Shown piece by piece: positions 4,092 through 28,485 of a DNA stretch of 52,229 nucleotides. Every line of letters begins with the position of its first letter. The stretch's first letter is position 1. The notes beneath the pieces were generated by a model. That model was not told the DNA's origin, did no database searches, and saw only the letters and a program-made list of their open reading frames with translations. This stretch comes from a virus (lineage: Duplodnaviria > Caudoviricetes): positions 1 through 52,229 of IMG/VR virus record IMGVR_UViG_3300038406_000260; one strand, given 5' to 3'. A program made the position numbers and the translations under genes.

Positions 4092-4093
4092 CG

Positions 4094-4530: not shown

Positions 4531-4541
4531 GCCTTAACCTT

Positions 4542-4630: not shown

Positions 4631-4636
4631 TATCTC

Positions 4637-5060
4637 ATAAGCAAGGAAACACCAAAACTCCAAAGAGGGACCTAGGGGAAAACGAGATCAGCTCCCCACC
4701 GCGGAGCAAGCCGCCAGGGTCAACAGAACGGAACAGAAGACAGAGCGAAGCACCTGGTGCTTCGAGGGGGCCGAATCGCTTCCCCGCACTCCTACCGCGA
4801 CACCCGACACGTCGGGCGGCCGCAGGAGGCATATCCGATCGGCCCCCCCGTGGCACCAGGACCACCTGCGGTTACGTGGTCGGCCGGGAGGCCAGGCTAC
4901 GAGAGAGGCACCCGGGAGGGTGCCGAGCACACCGGATCACCGGTCACCCGCTGACGGGCGGGGCGCGCCGAGTCCCCCAGGCCTGACGGGGCCAACCGGG
5001 GGGCGGGAGCCGACACCGGCCGGCCACGTAACCGCAGGACCCACCACCTAGCCTGACAGA
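4637..5060 (+). ncRNA. Candidate large structured non-coding RNA or leader
   Basis: Promoter upstream; 23-bp stem 4865-4887/5016-5038 with nested hairpins; second long stem 4753-4778/4836-4860; A-rich linkers; no convincing CDS. Confidence 0.55.
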
Positions 5061-5082
5061 CCTACCACCGAAGGAGACCGCC

Positions 5083-11346: not shown

Positions 11347-11347
11347 C

Positions 11348-13819: not shown

Positions 13820-14283
13820 CGGATCGCTGCCCGGATCGCGTCGTGCACCTGCCCGATCGCCTCCAGCATCTCGTCCCGCACCGCGTCTGCCTCGCCCTCC
13901 ATCGGCTCGGTGAAGAAGCCCGGCCGGATGTCCTGGGTGAACCAGTGCTCCCGGTCGGCGAACAGGGGGTGGGCGAGCTGGCCGGCCTCGAGCCTCTTGA
14001 CGCTCCGCTTCACGCCGCCCTTGGTGCGGGAGATGATGCGGATGGCCGGATCCCGGCCGCCGGTCTTGATCTGCGTACGCGGCGCGTGGGAGGCCTGGAG
14101 CAGAGCCGCGTAGCCGCCACGTCCGGGCATGTAGTCCGGGATGGACTCCTGGACCGCCCGGCGCAGCGGCTTGGCCGCCCGGTTCAACCCGCGGAACAGC
14201 TCACGCCGGTAGTGCTTCTCGGCGCCCCGGAGCGCCCGACCCGCCTGCTCCAGCACCTCCACGTTGCGCAGCTCGATGCCCAC
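13816..14283 (-). CDS. HK97 gp10-like tail completion protein
   Basis: LAHPLF..REHWFTQDIRPGFF; position in tail module. Confidence 0.6.
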   Translation of the reverse strand: MGIELRNVEVLEQAGRALRGAEKHYRRELFRGLNRAAKPLRRAVQESIPDYMPGRGGYAALLQASHAPRTQIKTGGRDPAIRIISRTKGGVKRSVKRLEAGQLAHPLFADREHWFTQDIRPGFFTEPMEGEADAVRDEMLEAIGQVHDAIRAAIR

Positions 14284-14678
14284 TACCCGACCTTCTGGAT
14301 CGCGCTGGCCGCGTTCCAGCTCGCGCTGATAGCCACCGCACCGCTGACCGCACCGTTGACGCTCATGTCCGGCAGGATCGTCCCGAACCAGTACTGCGCG
14401 TTGAGAGTGCTGGGGTACAGGTAGAACTTGCGCGCGATCCCGTCGGTGGCCGCGGTGTAGGTCTGCACCGTGGCGTCGTCGTAGAAACCGGCGAAGTCGC
14501 CGCTGGCGTCCGGCAGGCCCGCGACGTAGACCTTGTTATCGTCGCCGAATGTCGTAGTGTCGATCTTCTCGGTCGCGAAGGAGATCGACCAGCTGTTCAG
14601 GAACGCCACCGGCTCAGCGGTGCCGCCGGATGCCAATGCCAGGTACACGCGTCCCCGGCGGCCATGGATACGTGCCAC
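14283..14678 (-). CDS. Major tail tube protein
   Basis: SWSIS....IDTTTFGD..KVYVAGLPDASG; GTG overlaps upstream stop. Confidence 0.8.
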   Translation of the reverse strand: MARIHGRRGRVYLALASGGTAEPVAFLNSWSISFATEKIDTTTFGDDNKVYVAGLPDASGDFAGFYDDATVQTYTAATDGIARKFYLYPSTLNAQYWFGTILPDMSVNGAVSGAVAISASWNAASAIQKVG

Positions 14679-15706
14679 TATCTCACTCCCTCTAACAGGC
14701 GCAGCATGCGCGCTGCGTTGTCCGCGAACGTGCGGTCGGCGACCGCCTGACGGGCCTCGGCTGCCGCCGCCGCCCGGAGATCCTCGTGTGCCAGCCACCA
14801 CCGGGCCAGATCGCCCGCCTCGGCCGGCGAGCCGAACGCGGGCAGCATCGGCAGCAGCTCATCACCCTCGCCGCGCGGCTCCCGCAGGAACGGCAGGCCG
14901 ACCGCCGCCATCTCCACCTCACGCGGACCGCAAGCCCAGCCGGCCGCCGAGTCCCCGTCCTCGGTCTCCTGGCGGTACAGGTTCAGCCCGATCTTGGCCG
15001 AGCGGTAGATCCGCACCGCCTCTGCGTTGTCCAGGCACTCGGCGATGTCGTGGCCCACATGCTTACGCAGCGGCGAGTCCTTGGCCAGCCGCTGCCAGTT
15101 GCCGGCCAGCAGCAGATCCAGCCCGGTACGGTCCATCGCCTCGAAGAAGGCGATCCGCGATTCGAAGCCGGTGCCGACGAACGCCAGGTCCGCGGCCAGG
15201 TGCGGCTCGGCCGGGCCGGGGCAGTGCACCGTCGGGCGGTAGGCGTGCGGCAGGTAGTGGGCCGGGGCCAGCTCCCGGTACCGGTCGATGCTCACCGGGT
15301 CGTTGAGCAGGTTCAGGTCGGCGTGCGCGGCCACGGCAAGCTGCCGGGTGTCCTCGTATGGCGTCTCGGTGTGCAGCACCACCACCCGGGTCCGGTAGCG
15401 GCGGGCCAAGTCCAGCAACTGGACCGGCACCAGAAACGCCGAGACCACCAGCAACACGTCGGGCCGGGTCTTGTACAGGCAGGAGTACAGGCCGTTGACC
15501 GCCAACTCGACTGCGGTCTCCTGCGGGATGGCCTTGCGGAACTGACCCTCGGCGATGTTGAAGTAGGCGCCGTCGTAGAAGACCAGCCGATCATGCAGAT
15601 TGAACGGGATCACCCGGTGGCCGAGCTGTTCGAGCGCCTCCACCCACCCGGCGTACACGTCGGCCACGGAGAAAGACGGGCCAGGATGGCAGACCACGAA
15701 CCGCAT
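14678..15706 (-). CDS. GT-B glycosyltransferase (CgeB / Glyco_trans_1_2-like)
   Basis: ETPYED, DLAFVGT, IYRSAKIGLN, PREVEMAA, RTF.DNA motifs; start MRFVVCHPG. Confidence 0.85.
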   Translation of the reverse strand: MRFVVCHPGPSFSVADVYAGWVEALEQLGHRVIPFNLHDRLVFYDGAYFNIAEGQFRKAIPQETAVELAVNGLYSCLYKTRPDVLLVVSAFLVPVQLLDLARRYRTRVVVLHTETPYEDTRQLAVAAHADLNLLNDPVSIDRYRELAPAHYLPHAYRPTVHCPGPAEPHLAADLAFVGTGFESRIAFFEAMDRTGLDLLLAGNWQRLAKDSPLRKHVGHDIAECLDNAEAVRIYRSAKIGLNLYRQETEDGDSAAGWACGPREVEMAAVGLPFLREPRGEGDELLPMLPAFGSPAEAGDLARWWLAHEDLRAAAAAEARQAVADRTFADNAARMLRLLEGVR

Positions 15707-16200
15707 CAGCCGACCGCCAAGCTGTCGAACAGCGCCACGGTGGCCCGGTCCGAGGCGTAAAGCTGGCCTTTCCGCACGCCGTACCCGTAGCCCAGCGGCA
15801 AGGCCCAGGCCGCGAACGCCTCGGCGAACGCCTCGAACCGGTCGGTCGCGGCGTAGTCGCCAACCGGCTCGGCCCGGTGCGCGAACCCGAGCGACGCGTC
15901 CAGCACGTGACCCAGCTCGTGCACCAACACCGGCAACCCCAGTGAGGCCGGGCGCCCCGGCAAGACGACGGTGGTGCGGCGGTTCGTCCGGGCAGTCCCG
16001 GTCTGGTGGAACTCGTAGGCGACATGCGCGGTGCTGCGGTACGAGCGGCCGAACGACGCGCCCTCGTAGCGATGTAGTCCCGCGAACACCGGGTCCACCC
16101 CGCACAGGAAGTGCGGCCGGATCAGCCGGTGCATGCCCGCGGGGATCAGCGAATACGCCGCCTCGATCGGAGCCCGGTACCGGTGGGCAACGCGCTCCAT
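15706..16200 (-). CDS. Zincin metallopeptidase-like protein
   Basis: VLVHELGHVLD plus YAATDRFEAFAEAF; TGATG coupling on both sides. Confidence 0.7.
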   Translation of the reverse strand: MERVAHRYRAPIEAAYSLIPAGMHRLIRPHFLCGVDPVFAGLHRYEGASFGRSYRSTAHVAYEFHQTGTARTNRRTTVVLPGRPASLGLPVLVHELGHVLDASLGFAHRAEPVGDYAATDRFEAFAEAFAAWALPLGYGYGVRKGQLYASDRATVALFDSLAVG

Positions 16201-16595
16201 CAGCCGACCTCGACAACCACGTCCGCCGCCAAGTACTTGATCCCCGCCCACTCGACGATCCGGTCGCGGCCCACTGAGACGGCCGTCGCGAAATCCACCA
16301 CCCCGCCGAGCGTCGGGTCACCGTCGATGGCCAGCCGGATCGACGAGGCGCCCTCGCCAGCCAGGTAGGCGTCGAGCTTGACCTGGCTGCTCGGGTCCTC
16401 CGGGTGCTCCACCATCACCGTCACCGCGAACGTCAGGTCGTCGGAGTCGGTGGAGGTGTCGAAGGCGGTGGAGCGGCGGGACACCACCGCCGCCGGCGCG
16501 TTGACGTTAGCCGGCATGCCGGCGTGCGCGCGTAGCCCGACGATCGTGTCCAGCCGGACCTTGATCGCCTCGCGGATCTGCTGAACGGTGGCCAT
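16200..16595 (-). CDS. Tail terminator / head-tail joining protein
   Basis: QIREAIKVRL...AIDGDPTLGG; position. Confidence 0.65.
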   Translation of the reverse strand: MATVQQIREAIKVRLDTIVGLRAHAGMPANVNAPAAVVSRRSTAFDTSTDSDDLTFAVTVMVEHPEDPSSQVKLDAYLAGEGASSIRLAIDGDPTLGGVVDFATAVSVGRDRIVEWAGIKYLAADVVVEVG

Positions 16596-17506
16596 CAGGC
16601 CATCAACACCGGGTAGCGCTGGTACGGCCGGATCAGGTCCCGGGCGAACGGGTTACGCCGCAACACCTGGACGGCCATCTCGTCGAATCCCATCTGGGCC
16701 TCGAAGGTGGACTTGGACCGGAAGATCTCAGCGGCGGTGATCAGCGCCGACTGCTTCACGCCGTAGGGCACGGCCGGCCAGCCGAACACGCCGGTTATCT
16801 GCACCCGGTCGTCGCGCGCCAGCGCGCCGTGCGGCAGCGGGAAGGTCCGGGCCAGCGCCTTCACCTCGGTGTACGGCCTGCGCTCGGGGGCGGCCGCCGG
16901 GTTGACCGGCAGCAGCTGGTAGTCGGTGGCGGCCCAGGTGGTCCCGAACGTCCCGTCGCCGCCCGCGTCGGTCTTCAGTGTGGCAACCGACACCAGGTCG
17001 TTGAAGGCGCCCAGCTTCAGACAGTAGAGGTTGCTGGGTGGGAAGGTGCGGACCTCGGCCGCGGTGGTCCGCCAGAACAGCCGCTGGCAGTAGTTCTCGA
17101 TCGCGCGGCTAGCGGCGAAGCACGCCATGTGCAGCTCGAAGCCTTCGGCGGTGTCAGTAGCGTCCCTCCCCAGCCGTGACCTGAGCGACTCCACGGTGGC
17201 GTAGAGCCGGCCGAGCGTGGCATCCAGCACGTCCCAGGTGCCGGCCTCGGCGTCCACCACCGTGCCGGTGCCGGTCCACTCGTAGGCCCACGTGCCGGCG
17301 AGGTTGCAGGCGATGTCCTTGGTGTACACGCCGGCGCTGGTGCGGGTGATCTCCAGGGCGGCGAAGGTGTACGTGACCACGGCGCCCTCGGGGTCGGTGA
17401 CGGTCAAGCTGATCGTGGTCGGGTCGGTCGGGGTGCCGGCCAGGTCGAACGTGTTGGTCAGCGTCGCCAGCTCGGATGTCGACTCGAAGAAGATCAGCGC
17501 TGCCAC
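16595..17506 (-). CDS. Head-tail adaptor fused to an N-terminal Ig-like domain
   Basis: C-part YATVESL...AASRAIENYC.R.F...GVFGWPAVP..VKQ; N-part PTDPTTISLTVTDPEG..AGVY..AGTW.YEW. Confidence 0.75.
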   Translation of the reverse strand: MAALIFFESTSELATLTNTFDLAGTPTDPTTISLTVTDPEGAVVTYTFAALEITRTSAGVYTKDIACNLAGTWAYEWTGTGTVVDAEAGTWDVLDATLGRLYATVESLRSRLGRDATDTAEGFELHMACFAASRAIENYCQRLFWRTTAAEVRTFPPSNLYCLKLGAFNDLVSVATLKTDAGGDGTFGTTWAATDYQLLPVNPAAAPERRPYTEVKALARTFPLPHGALARDDRVQITGVFGWPAVPYGVKQSALITAAEIFRSKSTFEAQMGFDEMAVQVLRRNPFARDLIRPYQRYPVLMA

Positions 17507-17507
17507 G

Positions 17508-20234
17508 TCACCCTCCCGTCACGGTCGTAGCGGATGTCCGTCGGGCCGTCACCGCCGCGGTGGATGTGCGGTGGGCGGCCACCGGTGGCCAGACCGGAAT
17601 CTCGGGGGTGCCGATCACCCCGGTCAGTCCCAGGTTGAGCGCCACCAAGGCGGTGACGGCGTGGTCGGTGGCCACGGTGGGGGCGAGGGTCAGCGTGAGT
17701 GGTATGCCGGCGGTGACCTGGTATCCGGTGGCGGTGGTGCCGGCCAAGGTCAGGCCGAGCGGGATGGTGGCGGTGACCTGGTTGGGTGCGCCGGGCACCG
17801 GCGCGTCGACCACCGGGGCGACGGTGATTGTGAGCGGGAGCGTGGTGGTGACCTGGTGCTCGGCCTGTACGGTGCCGGCGGTGGCCAAGGTCAGCGGCAC
17901 GGCGGTGGTGACCTGGTGGTCGGCCCGTACGGTGCCGGCCACGGTCACCGTGAGGGGGATGCTGGCGGTGACCTGGGCCGGGGCGCCCACGTCCGGCGCG
18001 TTGACCACCGGCGCCACGGCGAGGGTCAGCGGCACGGCCGCGGTCACGGTGTGGTCAGCGGCTACAGTCCCGGCCAGCGTCACCGTCAGGTCCACTTCGG
18101 CGGTGGCCTGGTGCTGCGCGGTGGTGGTGCCGGCCAGCGCCACTGCGAGCTCGACCCCGGCGGTCACCTGGTGCTCGGCCTCGGTGGTGCCGGCCACCGC
18201 GATCGTCAGGGGGATGTTGGCGGTGACCTGCGGGGTGGTGGTGACCCCGGTGGACCAGACGACCAGCGCGGCGGTGATCCGCTTGCCGGCGTCCCCACCG
18301 GGGAGGGTGACCGTGTCCGCCCGGACACCGGCGCCCTGTCCGTCCAAGATCAGGTAGCCGCCGACGCCGGCGTTCCCGCCCGCCCCCTTGCCCGCGTAGG
18401 CGTCCAGCAGCAGATTGCCGCCGCCGACCAGCCCCGGGTTCACGTCGGTGGCGGCCCACACGATGCCGGCCGCGCCGCCGTCGCGGATCGCCGCGGCGGC
18501 CAGCAGCAGCAGGTCACCGGCCGGGATGCTGGCGGTGTCGCCGGTGGCAAGGGATGTGACGGAGCCGGTGTCGGAGTCCGCGACCGCGGCGGCGGCGAAC
18601 CCGAACGCCCCACCCTCCTGGACGCGCAGCCAGATCGCGTCGGTCGGGTCGGCCGACCAGGCGGCGGTGAACAGCCCGTCGGTGATGCCGCTGGTGGGGA
18701 CCAGCTCGGCGACGCCGAGGGAACGGCGCGCCAGGTCGTTGCCCGGCAGGGTCGCCTCGGCCACCCGGTTGATCCAGGACGCGCCGCCGGCGTTGGGAGT
18801 GACCGCGAAGCCGGTTCCGCCGCCGCGGCTGAACGCGATGCAGATCAGCCGCTCGCCGACCCCACAGGACAGGGTGGCGGGGTTGGCCGAGACGGTTCCG
18901 GAGAGCAGCCCGGTATCGCTGGGCGCCTGGACTGTGCCGGCCAGCGTGACGGCCAGGGGGATGTCGGCGGTGACGGCATGGTCGGCGGCTGCGGTCGGCG
19001 CGACCGCGACGGTCAACGGGATCGAGGCCGTGACGATGGCCGGCAGGACCTCGGCGACTGAGAACTCGACCCACGAGTTGGCGTGGTTGATGTCCAAGGT
19101 GAAGCTGCGAGAGCCGCCGCCGCCTGCCTTGCGCAACCACAGACTCAACGCGAGCTTGTCACCGGCGACGAACGGGCCGGCCAATGCCATGGTCTGCGTC
19201 TTAACACCGACGGTGTTGTGCGCAGATGAGGCCGTGGAGGCCTCCTGCTCCACGTCGGCGCTGTTGTACCGATGGACTCTCCACTGGTACTGCAATGTGG
19301 ACGCCGAAACCGCCGACATGGAGATGGACGTGTCGATTGCCACGCTGGCGTCCACCGTCGCGCCAACAACTCGCCAGAACTCCAGCACCTTGACGAAGCT
19401 TCCGGAGCTGACACTGCCCGAGCCCACCGTGGTGGGTGTGCCCTGGGTCTCGGACAGGTCCCGGACGATGCCACCGGTGCCCGGCTCGTCCTGGGTGCTG
19501 CGCAGATAGTTCCGGGACAGGGCCAAAATTCCGGCAGTGCCGTAAACGAAGTCGAGGTCAGTGACGGTGGTCGGGGTGCCCACGCCGACGGATGTCTCAT
19601 CGGCCCGGTTGAGGGTGAAGTCCTCGACCATGGAGTTCGCGTCCGGCTGGGAGAATTCCCACCCGGACGCCGGGTCGGCGTCCCGCCAGTTGTCCAGGTG
19701 CTCATCGAGGTTGGCCGCCTCGATCGCCGCGTCGCCGAACGTGTCGGCGGCCCAGGGCAGCTCGTTGGCCCAGACCGCCGCGGCGGCGTAGTCGCTATCT
19801 GGGCCTTCGCCGGAGGTCGCGTCCTTTGTGCGGATGCTGCCGCCTGTGGGCGCCACCCAGTCCAGCTGGGTATCGACGGCATCAGCGTGCGCCCAGATAC
19901 CCGTGGCCAGGTTCTGGAGGCTGAACCGGGGACGCACATCCCCCGTGTTCTTACGCGCCACCAACAGGTGCCAGTCGCCAAAGGTGACAACTGGCCCTTC
20001 CGTGGCCCAGGCGCTCGCGCCCTTCCAGAAGATGGTCCCGTTGCCGAGCACCCCGACGCCACCCAGGTCGGCACCGGTCGAGTCGTACAACTTCACCAAC
20101 CAGCGGAAAACCGGGTCTGCCGCCGGCCGGAACAGGATCGCGACCGTGCCGTAGGTCGTTGCGTCAACACCACCGAGCCCGGTGGAGAACGCAATGTCGT
20201 CGGCGTTGCCGAGCCGGCGGACGACGATCGACAC
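17508..20234 (-). CDS. Large fibre/appendage protein with lectin-like beta domains and ~20-aa repeats
   Basis: LamG-like N-terminus (WHLLVARK); about 10 HQVTA.IPLTL..AGT repeats. Confidence 0.65.
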   Translation of the reverse strand: MSIVVRRLGNADDIAFSTGLGGVDATTYGTVAILFRPAADPVFRWLVKLYDSTGADLGGVGVLGNGTIFWKGASAWATEGPVVTFGDWHLLVARKNTGDVRPRFSLQNLATGIWAHADAVDTQLDWVAPTGGSIRTKDATSGEGPDSDYAAAAVWANELPWAADTFGDAAIEAANLDEHLDNWRDADPASGWEFSQPDANSMVEDFTLNRADETSVGVGTPTTVTDLDFVYGTAGILALSRNYLRSTQDEPGTGGIVRDLSETQGTPTTVGSGSVSSGSFVKVLEFWRVVGATVDASVAIDTSISMSAVSASTLQYQWRVHRYNSADVEQEASTASSAHNTVGVKTQTMALAGPFVAGDKLALSLWLRKAGGGGSRSFTLDINHANSWVEFSVAEVLPAIVTASIPLTVAVAPTAAADHAVTADIPLAVTLAGTVQAPSDTGLLSGTVSANPATLSCGVGERLICIAFSRGGGTGFAVTPNAGGASWINRVAEATLPGNDLARRSLGVAELVPTSGITDGLFTAAWSADPTDAIWLRVQEGGAFGFAAAAVADSDTGSVTSLATGDTASIPAGDLLLLAAAAIRDGGAAGIVWAATDVNPGLVGGGNLLLDAYAGKGAGGNAGVGGYLILDGQGAGVRADTVTLPGGDAGKRITAALVVWSTGVTTTPQVTANIPLTIAVAGTTEAEHQVTAGVELAVALAGTTTAQHQATAEVDLTVTLAGTVAADHTVTAAVPLTLAVAPVVNAPDVGAPAQVTASIPLTVTVAGTVRADHQVTTAVPLTLATAGTVQAEHQVTTTLPLTITVAPVVDAPVPGAPNQVTATIPLGLTLAGTTATGYQVTAGIPLTLTLAPTVATDHAVTALVALNLGLTGVIGTPEIPVWPPVAAHRTSTAAVTARRTSATTVTGG

Positions 20235-20585: not shown

Positions 20586-20939
20586 CTAGCTACAGTGCAC
20601 CCATGCTTGTACCGTGATCGTCTGGCCGGCTGGCGCCACAACAAACGCCAACACTTCCCATCCGTTGTTGAGAGGCCAGCTTCTCCACACCTGGACATCG
20701 TGATGACTAGTCACGTATCCACCACCTGTGGGCGCCGAGTTTGCTGGGCATGTCACCTGAGTGATGACCTGCCGCCCGAACCCTTCGCTGACTTCTGTTC
20801 TCGTCGCAACTTGCCAAGTTGCCGGCGCAGCTTCCGCCGACGGAGCGCTAAGACCGGCCACTAGCAAAGCTAGTGCTGCCAGAGCCACTACGGCCGACAC
20901 GGCCATCCGCCCCACGCTCTTGTTGAACCCTACGGCCAT
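20586..20939 (-). CDS. Secreted small beta protein
   Basis: Signal peptide ending AEA; CPANSAPTGGGY...W...HC; lower GC. Confidence 0.65.
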   Translation of the reverse strand: MAVGFNKSVGRMAVSAVVALAALALLVAGLSAPSAEAAPATWQVATRTEVSEGFGRQVITQVTCPANSAPTGGGYVTSHHDVQVWRSWPLNNGWEVLAFVVAPAGQTITVQAWVHCS

Positions 20940-20947
20940 GGCTCCTC

Positions 20948-21283
20948 CTAAGAGACGGTGATCGGTGCGGCGGTGAGATCGAGCTCCCCCGCGGCGTTAT
21001 AGGCGAGGTCTCCAGCCAGCGTCGCCGAGAACCGGAAGTTGCCGGCGGTCTGCGCGTCGTACACGAGCAGGTCGCTGACCGCGGCCGAGCCGGTACCGGT
21101 GAAACTCAGCGTGGCGGTCAATGCGGCCACGCCAGCCGCCGCGGCGGTGTAGGCCGGTTGCAACCGCTCGTTGGACACCTGGTCGCCGGCCAGGGGGCCA
21201 TCCCCGATGGCGTACCAGGCGGCCTCCAGATTCAGCGCGGCCGCATCCGCGGCCGCGTTCAGCAGTGGGGCGTCACCAGCCAT
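20948..21283 (-). CDS. Small structural beta protein (fibre-base type)
   Basis: VYDAQTAGNF...LAGD..YNAAGE motif typical of phage fibre-associated proteins. Confidence 0.6.
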   Translation of the reverse strand: MAGDAPLLNAAADAAALNLEAAWYAIGDGPLAGDQVSNERLQPAYTAAAAGVAALTATLSFTGTGSAAVSDLLVYDAQTAGNFRFSATLAGDLAYNAAGELDLTAAPITVS

Positions 21284-21286
21284 GGC

Positions 21287-21457
21287 TTACTCGTCTCTCT
21301 TCTCACGGGAATGGGTCGCCGTCGACTCAGTAATCGGCTCCTCCGGCTCAGGGTCCGGCTCTGGGATTGGCTGCCCGGTGGCCAGCGACAGGTTGATCTC
21401 CGCGGTCACCTCGTGCACGCGCTCGGGCTCCGGGGTGGAGGTTGTTTCGTCAGTCAT
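21287..21457 (-). CDS. Small acidic protein
   Basis: MTDETTSTPEPE...; GAGGA RBS; start uncertain. Confidence 0.45.
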   Translation of the reverse strand: MTDETTSTPEPERVHEVTAEINLSLATGQPIPEPDPEPEEPITESTATHSREKRDE

Positions 21458-21608: not shown

Positions 21609-22247
21609 TCACCCCACAGCACCCCGACCACCGGGTCCATCCGTGCCCCACTTCCGCCGGAACCGGGCCAGCCCCGCATCCCAGCCGTTCAGCTGCGCCA
21701 CGTCCGTCGGGCCGGCGGTGTTGTGCAGCACTAGGCCCGCGCCGCCGGTCAGGCACCAGTTGCGGCGGCCGGCGGCCAGCTGCTGCTCACACATGTCGTG
21801 GTCGTATGTGTGGAACCCGGCATAAGCCTCGTCCCAGACCACCCGCTGCGCGGTGGCCAGCAGCAGCCCGTCCAGATGGGCGCACTCGCCACCAGCGCCG
21901 AAGTCCAGCACACCCATCCGGGCGTCGACCACCGACCCGCGGCAGACACCCTCCCACCACGGCGTCACCCGGTTGATACTGCCGACCACGCCAACCATGC
22001 CGACCTTCGGCGTGCAGTGCACCAGCAGCTCAGACCGCAGCCCCGTCGGGTCCAGGACTTGCACGTCCTGGTGCACGTAGCAGCGGATCGGCTGAGTCGC
22101 CCGGGCCTGACCCCGGTTGTAGGCCACCGCGATCGACGGCGGATCCTCCACCACCACCAGCTCATCACAGTCGCCGAGCACCAGCGTCGCGGCCAGGTTC
22201 GCGGCCAGCACCTCCGGCCGGTGCGAGGCGACGATCCAGGAGATCAC
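21609..22247 (-). CDS. GT-A glycosyltransferase (Glyco_tranf_2_5-like)
   Basis: SIAVAYNRG, YVHQDV, LDGLLLA, FHTYDHDMC. Confidence 0.85.
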   Translation of the reverse strand: MISWIVASHRPEVLAANLAATLVLGDCDELVVVEDPPSIAVAYNRGQARATQPIRCYVHQDVQVLDPTGLRSELLVHCTPKVGMVGVVGSINRVTPWWEGVCRGSVVDARMGVLDFGAGGECAHLDGLLLATAQRVVWDEAYAGFHTYDHDMCEQQLAAGRRNWCLTGGAGLVLHNTAGPTDVAQLNGWDAGLARFRRKWGTDGPGGRGAVG

Positions 22248-22831
22248 GGGAAGTGGTAATCCACGGTGACCTCCGGCACGTACGCCCACCGCGCGCCGGC
22301 CCGCAGCCAGCGGTCGACCAGATCCCAGTCGATCGTCGGCAGGCTCTGCTCCCACGTCCCCAGCTCAAGCACGCCACGGCGATGAAGGAGCAGGGACGTG
22401 TCGATCTGCCCGAGGACGGGGGGCTGCGCGCCCACCTGGAAGGTGAGCCGGCCGCCGCGGTACACGTCCATGCGGGAGTAAGCGAAGTCAAGCTCCGGAT
22501 CGCCGGCTAGCACTCCGACCAGCCTGGACAGATGGTCGGGGTGGTAGGCGTTGTCATCGTCCAGGTAGGCGACCAGGTCACCACGCGCGATGCCGATGCC
22601 GTGCAGCCGCGCCCAGTGGCCCCAGCGGGCATGCTCATCGTGCCGGTCCAGCTCGGCGAAGGTGACGCCCAGATCGGCAACCAGCTCGGCGAGCTCCGGG
22701 TCTGGGCCGTCACTGACCACCACGTGCTCCACCCGCGGGTACGACTGACCCGACACCGACGGGATACAGCGGCCCAGCAGCAGATCATGCCGCTGCCAGG
22801 TGGGGGTGACCACCGACACCAGCGGCGTCAC
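22244..22831 (-). CDS. GT2 glycosyltransferase
   Basis: VSVVTPT, VVVSDG, ARGDLVAYLDDDN, DWDL. Confidence 0.9.
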   Translation of the reverse strand: MTPLVSVVTPTWQRHDLLLGRCIPSVSGQSYPRVEHVVVSDGPDPELAELVADLGVTFAELDRHDEHARWGHWARLHGIGIARGDLVAYLDDDNAYHPDHLSRLVGVLAGDPELDFAYSRMDVYRGGRLTFQVGAQPPVLGQIDTSLLLHRRGVLELGTWEQSLPTIDWDLVDRWLRAGARWAYVPEVTVDYHFP

Positions 22832-23661
22832 ACGCCCACCAGCCGGCGGTAGTACTCGACCGTCTCGGCCAGCCCGAGCGGCCACAGCTGCCGGCGGCAG
22901 GATGCGACCGGAGCCACCGCCACCACCCACGCGTCGGCCGGCTCCCCGGGCCGCATCGGCAGATGCACGATGCTGGACGTCGACCCGCACACCTCGACCA
23001 CCGTCTTGGCGGCCTCCAGCACGGTGGTCGCGACGCCGGTACCCGCCTCAAGGACCAGCCCGTAGGGACCGCCCAACGCATCCACCAGCGCCACGGCGAC
23101 ATCGGCGACGTGCACCAGGTCGATCCGCTGACTACCCGAGCCGTTGACCTCCACGTCCATACCGGTCAGCGCCCGGCAGACGAATGACGGAACGATCTTA
23201 CGGACCAGGCTCGTGCCGTGAGGCGGCGCCGGCTTCTGTCCCGGACCATAGACGTGGTAGGCGCGCACCACGGCGATCGGTTGACCGCCCCAGCAGGCAC
23301 GGGACAGGGCCAGATCCTCGGCGCACGCCTTGGTGATCGCGTACGGGTTGAGCTGGCCGCGGTGACCGGTACCGATCTGCACGGTCGGTATCCCGTGCGC
23401 AGCCGCGGCGGAGTAGACGGCATCGGCGCCGAGGATGTTGACCTCGATCGCCCGCGCCTCTGCCCCGATCAGCTCGGCGGTGCCGAGCGTACCGGCGAGA
23501 TTGATGACCCCTTCCACGCCGGCCATGGCCCGATCGAGCGCGACCCGGTCGCGGATGTCATCCGGCCGGTCGTAGCCCACCGGCTCGATACCCCGACCGG
23601 CGAGCTCGGCAACGACCGCCGCGCCGATGAACCCGGCCGAGCCGGTGACAAGGACCCTCAC
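22828..23661 (-). CDS. NAD-dependent NDP-sugar epimerase/dehydratase
   Basis: VTGSAGFIG, YAITK, VYGPGQ, DLVHVADVA. Confidence 0.92.
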   Translation of the reverse strand: MRVLVTGSAGFIGAAVVAELAGRGIEPVGYDRPDDIRDRVALDRAMAGVEGVINLAGTLGTAELIGAEARAIEVNILGADAVYSAAAAHGIPTVQIGTGHRGQLNPYAITKACAEDLALSRACWGGQPIAVVRAYHVYGPGQKPAPPHGTSLVRKIVPSFVCRALTGMDVEVNGSGSQRIDLVHVADVAVALVDALGGPYGLVLEAGTGVATTVLEAAKTVVEVCGSTSSIVHLPMRPGEPADAWVVAVAPVASCRRQLWPLGLAETVEYYRRLVGV

Positions 23662-24218
23662 GCCAGCCCCCGGTAGATCGCCAGCGTGTCCACCAGCTCC
23701 GGCGGCGGACCGAGCAACCGATCCAGCGCGGCCGCCACCCCCGGGCAGGTGTCCTCGCCGTAGTCGTGGCAGGCCAGCACCCCACCGGGAGCCAGCAGCT
23801 TGACCGCCCAGGTGACATCGTGCTCCACGGTCGCCTCGGCGTGATCGCCATCGACGAAGATCAGCCCGAACCGGCGGCCGGCCGCGGCCAGGTCCGGCAG
23901 CGCCACGAAGCTGAACCGCTGGTCGATGGTCACCTGGTCAGCGACCCGGCAGGCAGCCAGGTTCGCCCGCATCGTCTCCGCCGAGCTGAGCCACGAGTGT
24001 GGGTCCACCGCGGTCACGACCGCGCCGGCCGAGGCCATCACCGCCGCCGACCAGCCGTAGGCGCTGCCGATCTCCAGAACGCCGCAGCGGGGATCAGTCG
24101 GGTGGGCGCGGGTCGCCGCCCACGTCAGCTCACGCAGCGTCTCAGTCTCCACGGCGGTGACCGAGGTCGAGATGGCCGGCCAGTCGGCAAACACCACCGG
24201 CCGCCACTCCAGCTTCAC
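23658..24218 (-). CDS. Class I SAM methyltransferase (Methyltransf_24-like)
   Basis: VLEIGSAYGWS, FVDGDH, LAPGGVLACHDY. Confidence 0.9.
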   Translation of the reverse strand: MKLEWRPVVFADWPAISTSVTAVETETLRELTWAATRAHPTDPRCGVLEIGSAYGWSAAVMASAGAVVTAVDPHSWLSSAETMRANLAACRVADQVTIDQRFSFVALPDLAAAGRRFGLIFVDGDHAEATVEHDVTWAVKLLAPGGVLACHDYGEDTCPGVAAALDRLLGPPPELVDTLAIYRGLA

Positions 24219-25606
24219 TTCGCACCACCCAAGTGCTCGGCGGCCCGCCGCTCGAACAGCGCACGGTCCGCCTCCACGTGCGACTGGCCCAGCTCGTAGA
24301 CCTCATCCATCTCGGCCGTGCCGTACAGCGGGTGGAAGTGCTCAACCCGGGAACCCAGCGCCATCGCCCACACCCCGCGCTGCTTGGCGACGGTCACGAT
24401 CTCATCGTCTACCCACCAGTGCCGGTACCCCTCGTGGCACACTACGTCGGGGCCGTCCCAACTGGCGCCCCGCTCGGCCGCGTACGACCGGCGGACCAGC
24501 ATGTGAGTCGCATGGTGGCCGGCGGTCACCCGCGGGTTGGCCAGATCGTTGGTGCCGATCACGTGATGGCTGGCGCCGGCCACCGCCTGGGCGTGGTCGA
24601 GCCAGCCCGGCTGGAACCGCACATCATCGCCGGTGACGAACAACCACGGCTCGGCGGTCTGCCGGTAGCCGGCGTTGATCCGCTCGGCGAAGGTCGCGCA
24701 GCCCGGGTCCGTGATCACGTCGGCGCCGGCGGCCTTCCACGCGGCGATGGCCTCCGTCTCATCCGGCCGCGCCACCGCGTACGCCCGGGCCAGCCCGGTC
24801 GAGGCGCGCAACGAGTCCACGAACCGCTCGGCGTTGGCGTGCCGCAGAGCCGGCACCACCACCGCAGTCTCGGCGGTCGCCGGTGGCGCGGTAGCCCACT
24901 GCCAGTAGTCCGCCTCCTGCAACCACAACTGCTTCCAGTGGCTGGTCTTCACCCCAGTGTGGACGTACACCGGAAGGCCGAGCGACCCGGCCCGAATACA
25001 GAACGAGATGTCCTCGCCGAACAGCCCGCCCAACATTGGATTGGGCAGCCGGTCGTACCACACCGGTCCGCGCGTGTCGCGGATCCGCTGGAAGACCGAC
25101 CGGTGCACCAGCAGACACGCCGAGCCGGTCGCCACACATTGCACGAGCGCGTTGACCGGATACGTGGTCCGGGCGAACGTGCTGCCCACGTCACCCTGGC
25201 CGACCCAGTCGAAGATGGTGGGCCGCGGCTCGCAGCGGCGGCCGCCGAGCCCGTCATCGCCGACCTCCTTCTGGGCGAAGCACAGACCGCCGACGATGGG
25301 ACGCGTCACCGGATCCGCCACCTCGAGCAGGCAGTCGACCGTGTCCGGGGCGAACCCCATGTCGGTGTCCACCCACCAGAGCCACTCGGCGTCGCGCTCG
25401 GTCAAGAACCGCTCGACCGTCTGGTTCCGGGCGGCGGGCAGGCCGCCGGACGCGGTGTAGTTCATGGCCAGGAACCCACCGTTAAGCACCCGCCCGTGAC
25501 GCGCCCAGTCCCAGCCGATCAGCTCGACCAGGCTCATGTGCCAGGAGTGGGGGAGGCCGCGATCGTCATCGTAGATGTAGGCGACCGTTACGGCGCTGTC
25601 GGTCAT
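24215..25606 (-). CDS. Two-domain GT-A glycosyltransferase
   Basis: Domain 1 ARN..WWVDTD..GEDISFC; domain 2 INAGY..FVTGDD..HWWVDDE..VEHFHP. Confidence 0.88.
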   Translation of the reverse strand: MTDSAVTVAYIYDDDRGLPHSWHMSLVELIGWDWARHGRVLNGGFLAMNYTASGGLPAARNQTVERFLTERDAEWLWWVDTDMGFAPDTVDCLLEVADPVTRPIVGGLCFAQKEVGDDGLGGRRCEPRPTIFDWVGQGDVGSTFARTTYPVNALVQCVATGSACLLVHRSVFQRIRDTRGPVWYDRLPNPMLGGLFGEDISFCIRAGSLGLPVYVHTGVKTSHWKQLWLQEADYWQWATAPPATAETAVVVPALRHANAERFVDSLRASTGLARAYAVARPDETEAIAAWKAAGADVITDPGCATFAERINAGYRQTAEPWLFVTGDDVRFQPGWLDHAQAVAGASHHVIGTNDLANPRVTAGHHATHMLVRRSYAAERGASWDGPDVVCHEGYRHWWVDDEIVTVAKQRGVWAMALGSRVEHFHPLYGTAEMDEVYELGQSHVEADRALFERRAAEHLGGAK

Positions 25607-25956
25607 GCCGCGCCCTGCGCCTTGGCCAGCTCCTCGCGGAGCCGGACCAGGCTCCATCGGCCATCTACTTTGACACCCAGGCCGAGCAGTTGTGCGCGCA
25701 GCGCCTCGACCTCCGCGGCTGCCTGGTCGGCCCGTGGCCGGATCACCCGCAGCTCACCCGGCGCGGCGGTCGCCTGCTCCACCGGCGGGTCAACCTGCAG
25801 GTGGCGCGGCAGGGTGGTCCGGATGATCTTCGGCAGGTCGGAGAACCAGTCCGGATGCAGCTGCACGATCGGGTCGTCGGCGCGCCACGCCTCGCCCTCC
25901 ACGATCTGGACGGACGGGGTGACCCAGCTGGTGAACTTGGCGTAGACCACGTGCAT
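25603..25956 (-). CDS. Capsid-adjacent small protein
   Basis: VEQATAAPGE and LGVKVDGRWS...L motifs; directly after capsid. Confidence 0.6.
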   Translation of the reverse strand: MHVVYAKFTSWVTPSVQIVEGEAWRADDPIVQLHPDWFSDLPKIIRTTLPRHLQVDPPVEQATAAPGELRVIRPRADQAAAEVEALRAQLLGLGVKVDGRWSLVRLREELAKAQGAA

Positions 25957-26034: not shown

Positions 26035-26866
26035 TTACTGGTTCTGAAGCAGGCGGAAGGCGGCGTGGTTGACCGAATTCCCGCCGATCCGCGCCCAGGC
26101 GAACCAGCCACGCTGGCCGCTGGGCCGGTTGTTGTCGGTGTGGAACAGGTGCGGCACCAGCTCCACGCTCATTCCGCCCCGGCGGGCGATCAGGTAGTTG
26201 GACCAGTCACCGACGACCAGGCGGTGTTCCTTACCCGTGGTGCCGGTGAAGTCCGGGAAGTACGGGCTCTCGTAGACCCTCTTCCCGAACAGGATGTCCG
26301 CCCACTCGGCCGGCAGCTCCTTGGTGGTGGCGTGGAAGACGTTAGCCGTGCCGAACTGCCGGATCCGGTTGTTGATGTCCACCGACATCATCCAGGACGC
26401 CCGGCGCCGGTACTTCTGAGGCAGCGCCTTCCACACCTTGTACACATCCTCCTGCCCGAAGCCGGCATCGGTCGTTGACGCGACCTCGCTGGCCGCGGTG
26501 GCGTCGAGGATTGTGAGGATGCCGGTCGGCTCGTTGTTGCCGCTGCCGCGGCTGAACTTGTCAACCAGCAGCTCGTCGTAGCCTTCGCCGAGCAGGCGGC
26601 CCATCTCTGTTGCGAACATCGGGTAGTCCATCCCGATCTCCAGGCTGTACGGGATGAACCCGCGGGCGGTGTGCAGCGGCACCGTCGGTTGGGCCAGCGT
26701 CGGACTGTTGTCCGTCACCTCGGAGCCCTCGGTCTGGAACTGCCAGGTCACCCCCGCCGCCGAGACGCCCTTCCACTCGTCGGTGCCGATCGTCTGCTGC
26801 CGACAGATCGCCAGGAACGGGTTCCCGGACTCCTGGTCGGTCAGGATGATGCTTGGATCGATGAAG
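26035..26866 (-). CDS. Major capsid protein, exon 2
   Basis: FIDPSIILT...GSGNNEPTGI...VVGDWSNY...RIGG; HK97 fold. Confidence 0.9.
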
Positions 26867-27841
26867 CGCTTTGTTACTCCTCGGCCCATGGCCGAAGGGG
26901 CTGGTCATTTCTGCCAGCCTCTCTATGTCTCCATAGAGGCCAGACTATATCTTTATCTCACTCAACCCTTGCCACTGCTCAACCAGGTCAGCCAGCGCCC
27001 GCAGGGTAGACGGGTTCTCGCCCGCCAGCCCCAACGTGGTGTTGCACTTGTTGCAAAGCAACGCCCGGACATCGCCGGAGCTATGGCAGTGATCGATGCA
27101 CCAACCCTTGCCGCCCGGGTTGTCCGTGCCACAGCCGGGGCAGCGGCCATCTTGTTGGGCCAAGAGTTGGTCGTAACGCTCCTGTGTCAATCCGTACTTC
27201 CGGAGCCGCCGCCGCTGTTCATGTGCCTGTCTGTGGATACGCGGGTCCACGCGACATCCGACACATACCGCCAAGCCAGGCTTACGAGCCACATCGGGTA
27301 GCGGCACCTGGCACTTGTAGCATCGGCGAACGGCTGCCCGAGCGCGAGCTCGAACATCCTCCTTGGTTGCCCGGCAACCACTGCACCACCGCGGCTTCGG
27401 CCCCATCCTCCGGACCTGGATGCGGGTCCCACAAGACTCACACTCAGTATCAGGCCGAGCTGGCCGGGACTTGTAGTGGCGGCGGGCCTTCTCCCGGTTG
27501 AGCTTCCTGCGCCACTGAACTTGGCAGTCCAGGGAACAGGTCTTGTCGACCTTGCGTCGAGGGGAGAACCGGGTTCTACAGATTGCGCACTCTCGGTCGG
27601 GCTGCACGCCCTCAAGAGTACAGGAGCATTAAAGGGTTGAGAGAGATATCCCGTACATAGTCGTTGAACCTTCCCGTCGGGTTGCCCCAGGCGGGCTCGG
27701 CTGCTGATTGTCCCTACCGTCCACTTCTCAAACCGTCGCGCTCGGGCTTTCGCCCCACGCTGTGGTGTGAACGTCTAGCAGGATGTTCCAGCAATTCTCG
27801 GGATTGTCACTAGCCCGTCACCGGGCTAGGCGGCCACCTTG
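26867..27841 (-). mobile_element. Group I intron (975 nt) in the major capsid gene
   Basis: P GAATTGCTGGAA, Q AATCAGCAG, R GTTCAACGACTA, S AAGATATAGTC; P1 U-G pair; terminal G; splicing restores the frame. Confidence 0.92.
26945..27607 (-). CDS. Intron-encoded endonuclease VII-family homing endonuclease with Zn fingers
   Basis: KYGLT..Y..LL..Q.G.CPGC...IDHCH..G.VRALLCNKCN..LG; lies in the P8 loop. Confidence 0.88.
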   Translation of the reverse strand: MQPDRECAICRTRFSPRRKVDKTCSLDCQVQWRRKLNREKARRHYKSRPARPDTECESCGTRIQVRRMGPKPRWCSGCRATKEDVRARARAAVRRCYKCQVPLPDVARKPGLAVCVGCRVDPRIHRQAHEQRRRLRKYGLTQERYDQLLAQQDGRCPGCGTDNPGGKGWCIDHCHSSGDVRALLCNKCNTTLGLAGENPSTLRALADLVEQWQGLSEIKI

Positions 27842-28485
27842 ACCGGAACGCCGAACCCGCCGGCGGTGTCCGACAGGGACATCGCCCGGTACTCGTCGTA
27901 GGTGTCCATCGCGCGCCGCTCGTCGTCGGTCAGCCGCGGGTGGACCTGGGTCACCATCTTCATCCAGGCGTTGCGGTACTCGTCGTTCTCGGTGACGATG
28001 ATCCGCCGGCTGATGTCCGGGTCCCGCCGGATCTGACGCTCGACGTGGCCCATTGCCGTCGAGGACAGCGTCGCCTTCACATCCCGGCCATCCAGGATCC
28101 GCAGCGCCCGGTCCCGGGCCTCCGCGTTGGTGAGCCGCCGGATCTCGGTGGTCTCCAGCCCGTCCCGGATGTTGGCCAGCGCCCGCTCGACCGCCTTCGG
28201 CTTACGACGGAAGATCTCCTGGATCTTCCGGTGCTCGTCGAGACGGTTGATGGCGATGTCCCGCAGCTTCAGGCCGTAGTCGAACGCGGCCTGCTCGTCG
28301 TCGGTCTTGTCCCGCAGCTCGCCCTCTTCGCTCTGGTGCAGCTCGCGCAGGTGCGCGTCCAACACCTCGACGTAGACCTGGAGCTCCTCGGGCGTCTTCC
28401 CGCGCAGCTCCTCGGGCACCTCACCACCCAGAGCGGCGGCGTCCTTCCCGCGGAGATCGTCGAGGATCACGATTGGTTGAGTCAT
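27842..28485 (-). CDS. Major capsid protein, exon 1 (delta domain to GGFGVPV)
   Basis: Coiled-coil delta domain, then RAMSLSDTAGGFGVP; spliced CDS 1476 nt = 491 aa. Confidence 0.9.

Follow-up and report, generated by a model that had tools for sequence, protein, structure and literature searches.

Predicted virion-glycosylation enzymes encoded beside the capsid and tail-tube genes of an uncultured soil-type phage

Virions of the mycobacteriophages Che8, Corndog and Myrna are glycosylated by phage glycosyltransferases (GTs) on capsid and tail-tube subunits, as stated in papers that cite Freeman et al. (2023, Cell Host Microbe). This bears out the precedent cited in an earlier sequence-only reading of the present DNA, namely that GTs of some actinobacteriophages glycosylate these two kinds of protein. 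Cluster J mycobacteriophages such as Omega, LittleE and Thibault have an insertion of 8–10 genes, of putative function, between the capsid and connector genes; its products include as many as five predicted GTs, a GT of two domains that resembles chondroitin synthase, and SAM methyltransferases (Pope et al., 2013; PMC3706429). The chlorovirus PBCV-1 is described in PMC7826918 as encoding multidomain GT-A enzymes (A064R, A111/114R) and a methyltransferase that caps the glycan of the major capsid protein, host machinery not being needed. Glycan gene kits of such architecture are already known in some mycobacteriophages, and the cassette described here is a variant. The ‘more elaborate’ virion coat that the sequence-only reading had envisaged was overstated, given the GTs and SAM methyltransferases of Cluster J and the methyltransferase and three GT genes of Corndog.

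The window analysed here is an entire virus record of 52,229 bp from an uncultured, soil-type phage, classed as complete by its direct terminal repeats, of which a check recovered one of 127 bp. The GC content is 64–74%, GC3 frame analysis assigned the capsid and cassette genes to the minus strand, and an ORF scan showed that the genome encodes an integrase. Beyond the capsid gene lies a cassette of five minus-strand genes.

24215..25606, minus strand: GT-A glycosyltransferase of 463 aa with two domains, an N-domain that acts as the conserved, capsid-linked anchor enzyme and a C-domain that is a second GT-A
23658..24218, minus strand: SAM-dependent methyltransferase, O-methyltransferase-like, 186 aa (Pfam Methyltransf_24, E 7.8e-17)
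22828..23661, minus strand: short extended-SDR enzyme of the NDP-sugar epimerase/dehydratase family, 277 aa (Pfam Epimerase, E 1.2e-28)
22244..22831, minus strand: GT2-family glycosyltransferase, 195 aa (Pfam Glycos_transf_2, E 1.5e-16 for ORF 22244-22990)
21609..22247, minus strand: Glyco_tranf_2_5 GT-A glycosyltransferase, 212 aa (Pfam, E 2.2e-17 for ORF 21609-22355)

The genes are chained by 4-nt start/stop overlaps (24215-24218 between the two-domain GT and the methyltransferase, 23658-23661 between the methyltransferase and the SDR). The overlapping five-gene chain, one small gene past the capsid, had been read from the sequence with the same order and enzyme types as Pfam, PHROG and the coordinates now give. 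The true start of the two-domain GT-A is an internal ATG at 25606, in an ATGA overlap with the stop of the small gene at 25603-25956, in exact agreement with the end coordinate assigned earlier. The GT2 and the last GT-A start at GTG codons (22831 and 22247), each within a GTGA overlap. The cassette enzymes are soluble, with no transmembrane segment predicted from any of their sequences.

In the longer ORF 24215-25657 the Pfam Glycos_transf_2 match was restricted to the C-terminal half (E 6e-5), and the N-terminal half matched PHROG 34859 ‘glycosyltransferase’ (E 5.7e-18). The AF2 model of the two-domain enzyme (pLDDT 93.6, pTM 0.83) gave tandem GT-A enzymes as its best PDB matches: COLGALT1 (E 2e-11), the chondroitin polymerase K4CP, LH3, mimivirus R699 and LARGE1. 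Residues R60, D80, D82, E198, D199 and H223 of the N-domain were invariant in 56/56 aligned homologues, and G326, D327, D328, H423 and H425 of the C-domain in 17/17 two-domain homologues. The nearest solved chains to the methyltransferase are ‘probable O-methyltransferase’ entries. The SDR best matched the UDP-GlcA 4-epimerase MoeE5 (E 6.7e-17) and UDP-glucose 4-epimerases among PDB sequences and retains GxxGxxG and Y107/K111 (YxxxK) in 9/9 homologues; its length is unusually small and the placement of the catalytic Ser/Thr ambiguous. The GT2 has a conserved DDD motif and is nearest to PglI and SpsA among solved chains, and in the last GT-A H59, D61, D66, D115, D139, D149 and H175 were invariant in 15/15 homologues.

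A second locus pairs a further GT with a tail gene.

14678..15706, minus strand: GT4-like GT-B glycosyltransferase, 342 aa (PF13524 in 12/12 family members)
14283..14678, minus strand: major tail (tail tube) protein, 131 aa, the proposed GT-B acceptor (PHROG major tail protein matches)

The larger ORF 14678-16321 matched Pfam Glyco_trans_1_2 (E 4.7e-14). The GT-B assignment made earlier at 14678 was sustained by AF2 and Foldseek; the 547-aa ORF on which it was made is a composite, the real gene being 14678-15706. This gene starts at an ATG overlapping the stop of the upstream gene, and its own stop codon overlaps the start of the tail-tube gene by 1 nt. The GT-B model (pLDDT 92.3, pTM 0.89) was closest in Foldseek to the GT4-type GT-B enzymes MshA, BshA and PimA (TM about 0.65-0.69). 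The earlier count of five GT domains is correct because the AF2 folds and PDB matches give a tandem GT-A and a GT4-type GT-B. The tail-tube product weakly matches Roseobacter phage ‘tail tube protein’ genes, and its gene lies between the terminator and the tail chaperones and tape measure.

The capsid region upstream of the cassette contains the following features.

27842..28485, minus strand: major capsid protein gene, exon 1, the scaffold/delta-like N-terminal part (the printed ORF reaches a stop at 27826)
26867..27841, minus strand: 975-nt capsid-gene insertion, a group I-like intron with an Endonuclease VII/HNH-type ORF (26945-27607)
26035..26866, minus strand: major capsid protein gene, exon 2, HK97-fold capsid domain (Pfam Phage_capsid, E 3.8e-30 for ORF 26035-26889)
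25603..25956, minus strand: small conserved gene, 117 aa, between the capsid gene and the GT (weak PHROG connector match)

The ORF first labelled as the capsid keeps that identity through its Phage_capsid match, although it is exon 2 and not the whole gene. The exon 2 product is 40-42% identical to the capsid proteins of Kita and Babsiella, and the exon 1 product matches the N-terminal halves of the same proteins; in two relatives (L002 and L003) the exon 1 part runs without a break, in the same reading frame, into the capsid domain. As a separate observation, the capsid gene is interrupted by a group I-like intron bearing an EndoVII homing endonuclease. Compared with the same two relatives the intron is a clean insertion; GC is reduced within it, a U precedes the 5′ junction and a G ends the 3′ side. 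It matched the full Rfam RF00028 model at 42.5 bits (E 3.2e-9), below the gathering score of 50, and its ORF matched Pfam Endonuclease_7 (E 3.9e-20). The 117-aa product is probably a head–tail connector-type structural protein outside the enzyme kit; homologues of its gene occupy the equivalent position in 27/74 loci, and in many relatives the end of the gene abuts the GT start.

The linkage was followed in samples of related loci. In the GT-selected sample (74 viral loci, capsid detection by BLAST) a detectable capsid gene lay upstream on the same strand in 42/42 loci showing one, at a gap of 248-2391 nt. The counts from the samples are not independent events, because the three locus samples share contigs and stem from one broad lineage; some linkage is also expected by inheritance alone because structural operons are compact. 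Among the remaining 29 GT-matching loci, 26 had upstream sequence, and their largest upstream ORFs were checked against Pfam capsid families: 21/26 included PF05065, PF25209 or SU10 PF17236, and a recognisable capsid gene was not found upstream in five distant loci (L024, L050, L051, L064 and L070). The first GT-A domain thus comes after capsid genes of three Pfam capsid families. When loci were selected by capsid (80 loci, 14 of them too short and left out), a GT was located 308-2391 nt 3′ of the capsid gene in 66/66 testable loci. Selection by GT-B placed a tail-tube gene within 150 nt in 67/76 testable loci and at 321-731 nt in the other nine, with the capsid-then-GT-A pairing in 23/23 of those loci containing a capsid gene. 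With tail-tube selection the GT-B was upstream in 70/73 testable loci and absent from three. The coupling of GTs to capsid and tail-tube genes is kept far beyond close relatives. A search of 185,579 species genomes gave four matches, all in the phage context of the 117-aa and capsid genes (one is a 576-bp fragment with only the 117-aa gene and the GT), and none was in a cell-wall locus. Past the first GT-A the cassette differs between relatives, whose tailoring slots hold TylF or CmcI (rhamnosyl) O-methyltransferases, an NDP-hexose C-methyltransferase with a 4,6-dehydratase, a TOD1-like GT, SDRs or a DAO-type FAD oxidoreductase. The earlier prediction of a phage that produces or alters a sugar of its own and adds methyl groups to the glycan fits the sugar methyltransferases and dehydratase in these slots.

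The enzyme set most likely coats the virus particle with a custom glycan, and we consider it reasonably probable that the phage thereby encodes a cytoplasmic system for glycosylating its virion, with two target-coupled loci. Synteny supports virion glycosylation, the acceptors being read from gene order only. At the first locus the 463-aa enzyme would attach the first sugar to the capsid protein through its N-terminal GT-A domain, and its C-terminal GT-A domain would lengthen the chain together with the GT2 and the Glyco_tranf_2_5 GT-A; the short SDR would provide a donor by turning an NDP-sugar of the host into a different epimer or derivative, and the Methyltransf_24 enzyme would O-methylate a sugar. 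At the second locus the GT4-like GT-B would glycosylate the tail-tube protein or initiate its glycosylation. We infer both the order of steps and the donor sugars. By analogy with Che8, the glycan might shield the virion or change its surface properties.

In an unlikely variant, the sugars would be added to some other component of the virion and not to its capsid and tail-tube subunits. Three candidate acceptors are encoded directly downstream of the cassette.

17508-20234: 908-aa repeat protein
20948-21283: Ala-rich 111-aa fibre/head-like protein, with weak fibre/head matches
21287-21457: 56-aa small acidic product rich in Thr, Ser, Pro and Glu

The weak matches of the 111-aa protein fit this variant, as do the Shine–Dalgarno-like sequence of the 56-aa ORF and its composition, which is typical of O-glycosylated linkers. 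However, the candidates are not retained alongside the GTs (4/74 loci have the 908-aa protein and 2/74 the 111-aa protein), whereas the capsid–GT and GT-B–tail-tube links are near universal.

Somewhat less likely still is a role in lysogenic conversion or superinfection exclusion through changes to the host cell envelope, or in making a free polysaccharide, instead of a virion glycan. The integrase, the common use of lipid-linked glycans by GT2 and GT4 enzymes and the cell-envelope enzymes MshA, PimA and PglA as best structural neighbours of the GT-B would all suit such a role, but the cassette should be silent in a lysogen because it lies inside the late structural operon and overlaps structural genes at start and stop codons. 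Moreover, it contains no flippase, polymerase, GtrA/B-like or other membrane protein and no enzyme with a transmembrane segment, the linkage is conserved across capsid families, and the species-genome matches of the GT family are exclusively in phage contexts.

Modification of phage DNA by glycosylated or methylated bases is very improbable. PHROG labels the methyltransferase family ‘DNA methyltransferase’, but the protein is a Methyltransf_24 member with O-methyltransferases as closest solved chains, and the (D/N/S)PP(Y/F/W) DNA-methylase motif is absent from its sequence; sugar O- and C-methyltransferases and dehydratases fill the equivalent slots in relatives, and the scanned ORFs of the rest of the genome contained no base-hypermodification genes (dNMP hydroxymethylase, thymidylate-synthase-like enzyme, DpdA/Que gene) and no DNA polymerase. 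Equally improbable are GT-like ex-enzymes serving as assembly chaperones or structural parts, a role that would also fit the tight structural-gene coupling, since 15-56 homologues, some only about 25% identical, all keep the residues for catalysis and for metal and nucleotide binding, and since an SDR and a methyltransferase beside the GTs are explained only by sugar chemistry.

Virion glycosylation by this enzyme set can be compared with the known systems. PBCV-1 likewise has virus-encoded multidomain GT-A enzymes and a methyltransferase; it is a eukaryotic giant virus with atypical N-linked glycans and domains fused in one protein, and its enzymes have no sequence relation to those described here. 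Among cultured phages the SDR has its closest homologue (39.8% identity) in the gp5-gp8 cluster, of putative function, of Microbacterium phage Magritte, where an SDR gene and then two GT genes stand just upstream of the terminase and portal genes, not after the capsid gene. With Cluster J the present phage shares a block opening with a two-catalytic-domain chondroitin-synthase-like GT, with a SAM methyltransferase directly behind it and then further GTs, and a nearby HExxH zincin-like gene; some members also carry a group I intron with a homing endonuclease in the capsid gene. The word ‘epimerase’ is absent from Pope et al. (2013), whereas the present cassette has an SDR, and Omega has no GT-B annotated beside its tail-tube gene gp31. 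Sequence comparison with Omega gave no significant similarity (463-aa GT against gp16, E 0.27; 186-aa methyltransferase against gp17, E 6.6), nor did BLAST of the cassette enzymes against Che8 gp108-110 and Corndog gp35-38, the sole exception being a single short match of generic GT2 type to Omega gp16; function is therefore not transferable by homology. In Corndog the structural operon includes three GT genes and an O-methyltransferase gene, which immediately precede the one for the capsid, and the glycosylation genes of Che8 are at the far right genome end, in contrast to those within the structural region here. What distinguishes the present phage from Che8, Corndog and Myrna is the presence of two separate loci, each coupled to its putative target gene, together with an SDR.

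The 52,229-bp window is an entire IMG/VR virus record. Direct terminal repeats are recorded for it, and a 127-bp repeat was located. The GC content ranges from 64 to 74%, and GC3 frame analysis assigned the late genes to the minus strand. Family scans gave the late gene order listed below; two features from elsewhere in the window close the list.

Late genes in operon order, followed by other features of the window
(-): small and large terminase, portal protein and S78 prohead protease
(-): 219-aa ORF
26945-27607 (-): Endonuclease VII/HNH-type ORF, carried by an insertion in the capsid gene
26035-26889 (-): capsid domain
(-): g117, the 117-aa gene between capsid and cassette
24215-25606 (-): GT463, two-domain GT-A enzyme (anchor GT)
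(-): MT186, 186-aa methyltransferase
(-): SDR, 277-aa epimerase/dehydratase-family enzyme
start 22831 (-): GT2_195, GT2 enzyme
start 22247 (-): GTA_212, last GT-A enzyme
21287-21457 (-): 56-aa acidic ORF directly downstream of the cassette, rich in Thr/Ser/Pro/Glu and preceded by a Shine-Dalgarno-like sequence
20586-20939 (-): 117-aa ORF in the structural operon with a hydrophobic, signal-peptide-like N-terminus (Kyte-Doolittle 19-residue mean 2.58)
(-): several small genes
17508-20234 (-): 908-aa protein with ~20-aa Thr/Ala/Val-rich tandem repeats, between the head genes and the head-tail adaptor
16595-17506 (-): head-tail adaptor
(-): tail terminator
15706-16251 (-): 181-aa HExxH (zincin-like) protein between tail terminator and GT-B
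14678-15706 (-): GT-B, GT4-like enzyme
(-): 131-aa tail-tube protein
(-): two chaperone-like genes
11348-13258 (-): tape measure protein
9202-11568 (-): 788-aa distal tail protein with a phosphodiesterase-like PHROG match, among the distal tail genes
42706-43335 (-): transposase-like ORF (phrog_513) in the recombination module
1890-2726: integrase

Pfam and PHROG recovered, each in its place, every element that the sequence-only reading had listed, and its chain of overlapping genes one small gene past the capsid was borne out. GT463 starts at the ATG at 25606, which overlaps the g117 stop codon, and the starts of GT2_195 (22831) and GTA_212 (22247) both lie in GTGA overlaps; with the junctions so read, all five cassette genes that follow g117 are chained by 4-nt overlaps. 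The longest ORFs overstate three genes. The GT-B gene encodes 342 aa, its ATG overlapping the upstream stop and its own stop overlapping the GTG of the tail-tube gene; a 547-aa ORF (14678-16321) was rejected as the gene, its first 205 codons overlapping a better-coding frame.

The capsid gene carries a clean 975-nt insertion (27841-26867, minus strand) relative to two related viral loci, L002 and L003, whose capsid ORF is continuous. Rfam at the gathering threshold returned no match in the window; in E-value mode the insertion gave a full-length match to RF00028 (42.5 bits, E 3.2e-9; the gathering score is 50). The base before the 5' junction is a U and the last base of the insert a G, and joining 27842 to 26866 restores the frame of a 491-aa capsid protein. 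A third locus (L029) has a 24.5-bit group I match at the same site and a related endonuclease ORF (64% identity). Judged from these sequence features, the insertion is probably a group I-like intron with a putative homing endonuclease.

Several neighbouring genes were characterized in passing. The 908-aa protein had no Pfam or PHROG match and occurs in only four of 74 related loci; in the ESM Atlas its N-terminus resembled Laminin_G_3/ConA-like lectin domains below the threshold (score <0.9), which serves as a lead only. None of the 74 related loci has the HExxH protein, and the 117-aa ORF at 20586-20939 had no family match. The composition of the 56-aa acidic ORF resembles that of O-glycosylated linkers.

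Enzyme families were assigned with Pfam as Methyltransf_24 for MT186 (E 7.8e-17), Epimerase for SDR (E 1.2e-28), Glycos_transf_2 for GT2_195 (E 1.5e-16), and Glyco_tranf_2_5 for GTA_212 (E 2.2e-17), and the gene that ends at 14678 was placed in Glyco_trans_1_2. In GT463 the C-terminal half matched Glycos_transf_2, and the N-terminal half was recognised only by a PHROG 'glycosyltransferase' family. Folds were used for GT463, GTA_212 and GT-B because PDB sequence searches with these three proteins gave no match. The AF2 model of GT463, built with 56 homologues (pLDDT 93.6, pTM 0.83), consists of two GT-A domains, and its best PDB matches in Foldseek were the tandem GT-A enzymes COLGALT1, chondroitin polymerase K4CP (among the top matches, E about 1e-9), LH3, mimivirus R699 and LARGE1; among viral proteins aligned over two domains, a GT of Gordonia phage Sixama matched best. 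The GT-B model (pLDDT 92.3) matched MshA, BshA and PimA at E 5e-13 to 1e-9 with TM up to 0.69, and PF13524 was found in 12 of 12 family members; with two Rossmann domains and this likeness to GT4 enzymes, the protein is predicted from its model to be a GT-B-fold, GT4-like enzyme. The earlier count of five GT domains was therefore right, the models giving two GT-A domains in GT463 and a GT-B of GT4 type.

The GT-A enzymes of the cassette have the DxD motif and the downstream acidic and His residues of metal-dependent, GT2-like glycosyltransferases with the Rossmann-like GT-A fold. R60, D80, D82, G161, E198, D199 and H223 of the GT463 N-domain are invariant in 56/56 aligned sequences, and the C-domain keeps G326, D327, D328, H423 and H425, among others, in 17/17 two-domain homologues. 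GTA_212 keeps H59, D61, D66, D115, D139, D149 and H175 in 15/15 sequences; the DDD motif of GT2_195 is kept in an alignment of only three. In SDR the GxxGxxG motif (G7, G10, G13), Y107 and K111 are invariant (9/9), and the catalytic Ser/Thr could be S84 or T98 depending on the alignment. This protein is 277 aa long, compared with 303-385 aa for the ORFs of relatives. Its nearest solved chains are 4-epimerases (MoeE5, E 6.7e-17), and NCBIfam gave only sub-threshold matches to several SDR sugar enzymes. The nearest solved chains of the methyltransferase are O-methyltransferases. Transmembrane segments were found in none of the cassette enzymes.

A search of viral contigs with GT463 yielded 74 loci, onto which the window proteins were mapped. 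The capsid gene lies upstream of the GT, at a gap of 248-2391 nt, in each of the 42 loci where BLAST detects it. Another 29 loci included 26 with upstream sequence, from each of which the one or two largest upstream ORFs were given to Pfam (32 of 49 listed); a capsid family (Phage_capsid, Phage_capsid_4 or SU10_MCP) was present upstream in 21 of these 26 BLAST-negative loci, and in five none was found among the largest upstream ORFs. GT-B is directly upstream of the tail-tube gene in each of the 12 original loci that contain it. Three further samples were selected by capsid, GT-B and tail-tube protein; they share contigs and one lineage, so the following counts are not independent. The GT was downstream in 66/66 testable capsid-selected loci (best 80 of 151 contigs). 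Among GT-B-selected loci (best 80 of at least 572 contigs) the tail-tube gene lay at most 150 nt away in 67 of 76 testable cases and 321-731 nt off in the remaining nine, with capsid followed by GT-A in 23/23. GT-B was upstream in 70 of 73 testable tail-tube-selected loci (best 80 of at least 538 contigs). It was absent upstream in the other three (L183, L202 and L213), whose tail-tube proteins are 66-74% identical; these may be natural loss variants of GT-B.

A protein search with the GT463 N-domain returned 828 clusters, nearly all metagenomic 'hypothetical proteins'. A set of 185,579 species, represented by one genome each, held only four relatives: two from Actinocorallia, one from a Chloroflexota MAG and one from an uncultured MAG. 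In three of them the capsid and g117 genes lie upstream, and the fourth is a 576-bp fragment with g117 and the GT only. Actinocorallia, Kribbella and Trebonia are leads to a possible host.

The genes downstream of the anchor GT vary. Their content was sampled by sending 103 of 216 ORFs from 24 loci to Pfam, with the arrangements listed below.

Genes found downstream of, or fused to, the anchor GT in relatives
TylF O-methyltransferase and Glyco_tranf_2_5
methyltransferase, TOD1-like GT and Methyltransf_24
CmcI rhamnosyl O-methyltransferase
tandem anchor-GT copies, two methyltransferases and SDR
anchor-GT2 fusion, NDP-sugar C-methyltransferase (Methyltransf_13/14), 4,6-dehydratase and GT2

The NDP-sugar C-methyltransferase and 4,6-dehydratase occur in seven of the scanned relatives (L029, L030, L031, L033, L036, L039 and L041). 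The anchor GT of L002 is 98% identical to that of the window, with only 70% identity in the methyltransferase and 52% in the GT2, and a DAO-family FAD oxidoreductase (4042-5070) occupies the position of SDR. Conversely, L003 has the MT-SDR-GT2-GT-A set at 92-99% identity and an anchor GT at only about 79%. By these sequence comparisons the cassette island is a mosaic.

Glycosylation of the virion, as predicted from the kit, is its best-supported reading and is rather probable. In this respect the sequence-only reading stood; the exceptional elaborateness that it ascribed to the coat was overstated. An acceptor on the virion other than the proteins of capsid and tail tube is possible in this phage, and the 908-aa repeat protein, a 111-aa fibre-like protein and the small acidic ORF come into question; against this, the genes for these three are not conserved with the GTs. 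Modification of phage DNA by the cassette enzymes is unlikely: the methyltransferase family bears the PHROG label DNA methyltransferase, but the 186-aa protein is Methyltransf_24 in Pfam and contains no (D/N/S)PP(Y/F/W) or PC/ENV motif, and the other modules comprise primase/helicase, RecE/RecT, RusA and resolvase, with no base-hypermodification genes among the ORFs scanned. Modification of the host envelope is unlikely as well, since the genes lie in the late operon and overlap structural genes at starts and stops, and both membrane components and non-phage contexts are absent.

Virion glycosylation also forms the core of a broader and more tentative picture, which we regard as possible rather than probable, of a large, hitherto uncultured high-GC (actinobacterial-type) siphophage lineage with two-site, target-coupled virion glycosylation and a hypervariable tailoring island under diversifying selection. 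The capsid-linked GT-A would anchor a glycan-tailoring island exchanged among near-identical phages, and an O-methyltransferase, C-methyltransferase, 4,6-dehydratase, epimerase or FAD oxidoreductase would fill the slots. The GT4-like GT-B would be the near-obligatory partner of one tail-tube family. In this picture the island would behave as the viral equivalent of an O-antigen locus, with diversifying selection on the virion sugar coat, and its enzyme families would have no sequence relation to those of the studied mycobacteriophages.

When capsids were compared for Ser/Thr positions peculiar to those with GTs, a Thr-rich loop was noted at exon-2 residues of about 213-219 (exon 2 being the gene half with the capsid domain). 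At T217 and T218, at least 89% of 27 GT-linked capsids have S/T, and in two GT-less phages, Kita and Babsiella, their equivalents are S/T only once (Babsiella at 218). The loop is, speculatively, a candidate acceptor site, to be taken as a lead and not as evidence.

Virion glycosylation altered antibody recognition of phages in the published work on Che8, and it probably alters their surface chemistry in soil. This locus, with relatives that number in the hundreds in metagenomes, suggests that the trait is far more widespread and chemically more diverse than the few cultured examples show. The enzymes are dedicated and apparently target-coupled; the tight GT-B/tail-tube and GT-A/capsid pairs provide directly testable enzyme-substrate hypotheses, and the swappable tailoring slots a natural toolbox of putative soluble protein-glycosylating and sugar-tailoring enzymes.

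In 50,697 GenBank phage records the anchor GT had only three weak matches, the tail-tube protein two weak matches, and GTA_212 and GT-B none; SDR had relatives in 31 records, the best in Microbacterium phage Magritte, beside two GT genes. According to papers that cite Freeman (2023), it is established that phage GTs glycosylate the virions of Che8, Corndog and Myrna. As in Che8 and Corndog, the GTs of the window (with an O-methyltransferase in the case of Corndog) lie in or near structural genes; in Corndog a methyltransferase gene and three genes for GTs lie upstream of the capsid gene, and in Che8 three GT genes lie at the genome end. When the cassette proteins were compared with these regions by tblastn, GT463, GTA_212 and GT-B had no match at E<=1 and the others only chance-level matches outside the GT genes, and homology to the essential GTs, Che8 gp110 and Corndog gp38, was not found.

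The Cluster J passages of Pope (2013; PMC3706429) describe eight to ten genes inserted between capsid and connector genes, among them several GTs, a GT with two domains that resembles chondroitin synthase (Omega gp16), SAM methyltransferases and a protein like a zinc protease, and also a capsid gene with a group I intron that carries a homing endonuclease. In the Omega annotation capsid gp15 is followed by GT gp16, methyltransferase gp17 and zinc protease gp18, and further on by GT gp23 and the connectors. The window has such a GT insertion, running from capsid through g117 and five enzymes to the later adaptor and terminator, and likewise a GT that shares the two catalytic domains of E. coli chondroitin synthase, with a SAM methyltransferase directly downstream. 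The zinc-protease-like gp18 gene of Omega lies beside its GT and methyltransferase genes; gp18 has only a nine-residue stretch in common with the HExxH protein of the window. Searches with blastp and phmmer against gp16, gp17 and gp23 gave a sole match, GT2_195 to gp16 (E 1.5e-5), in a generic GT2 region. From the Omega gene order and the Cluster J passages, the architecture is the same as that of the window, with no detectable relation between the sequences. Outside phages, the nearest analogue in function is A064R of PBCV-1 (PMC7826918), in which two GT domains are joined to a methyltransferase that caps the capsid glycan. New in the window are its enzyme families, the slot for an SDR, a separate GT-B coupled to a tail-tube gene, and the scale and variability of the lineage.
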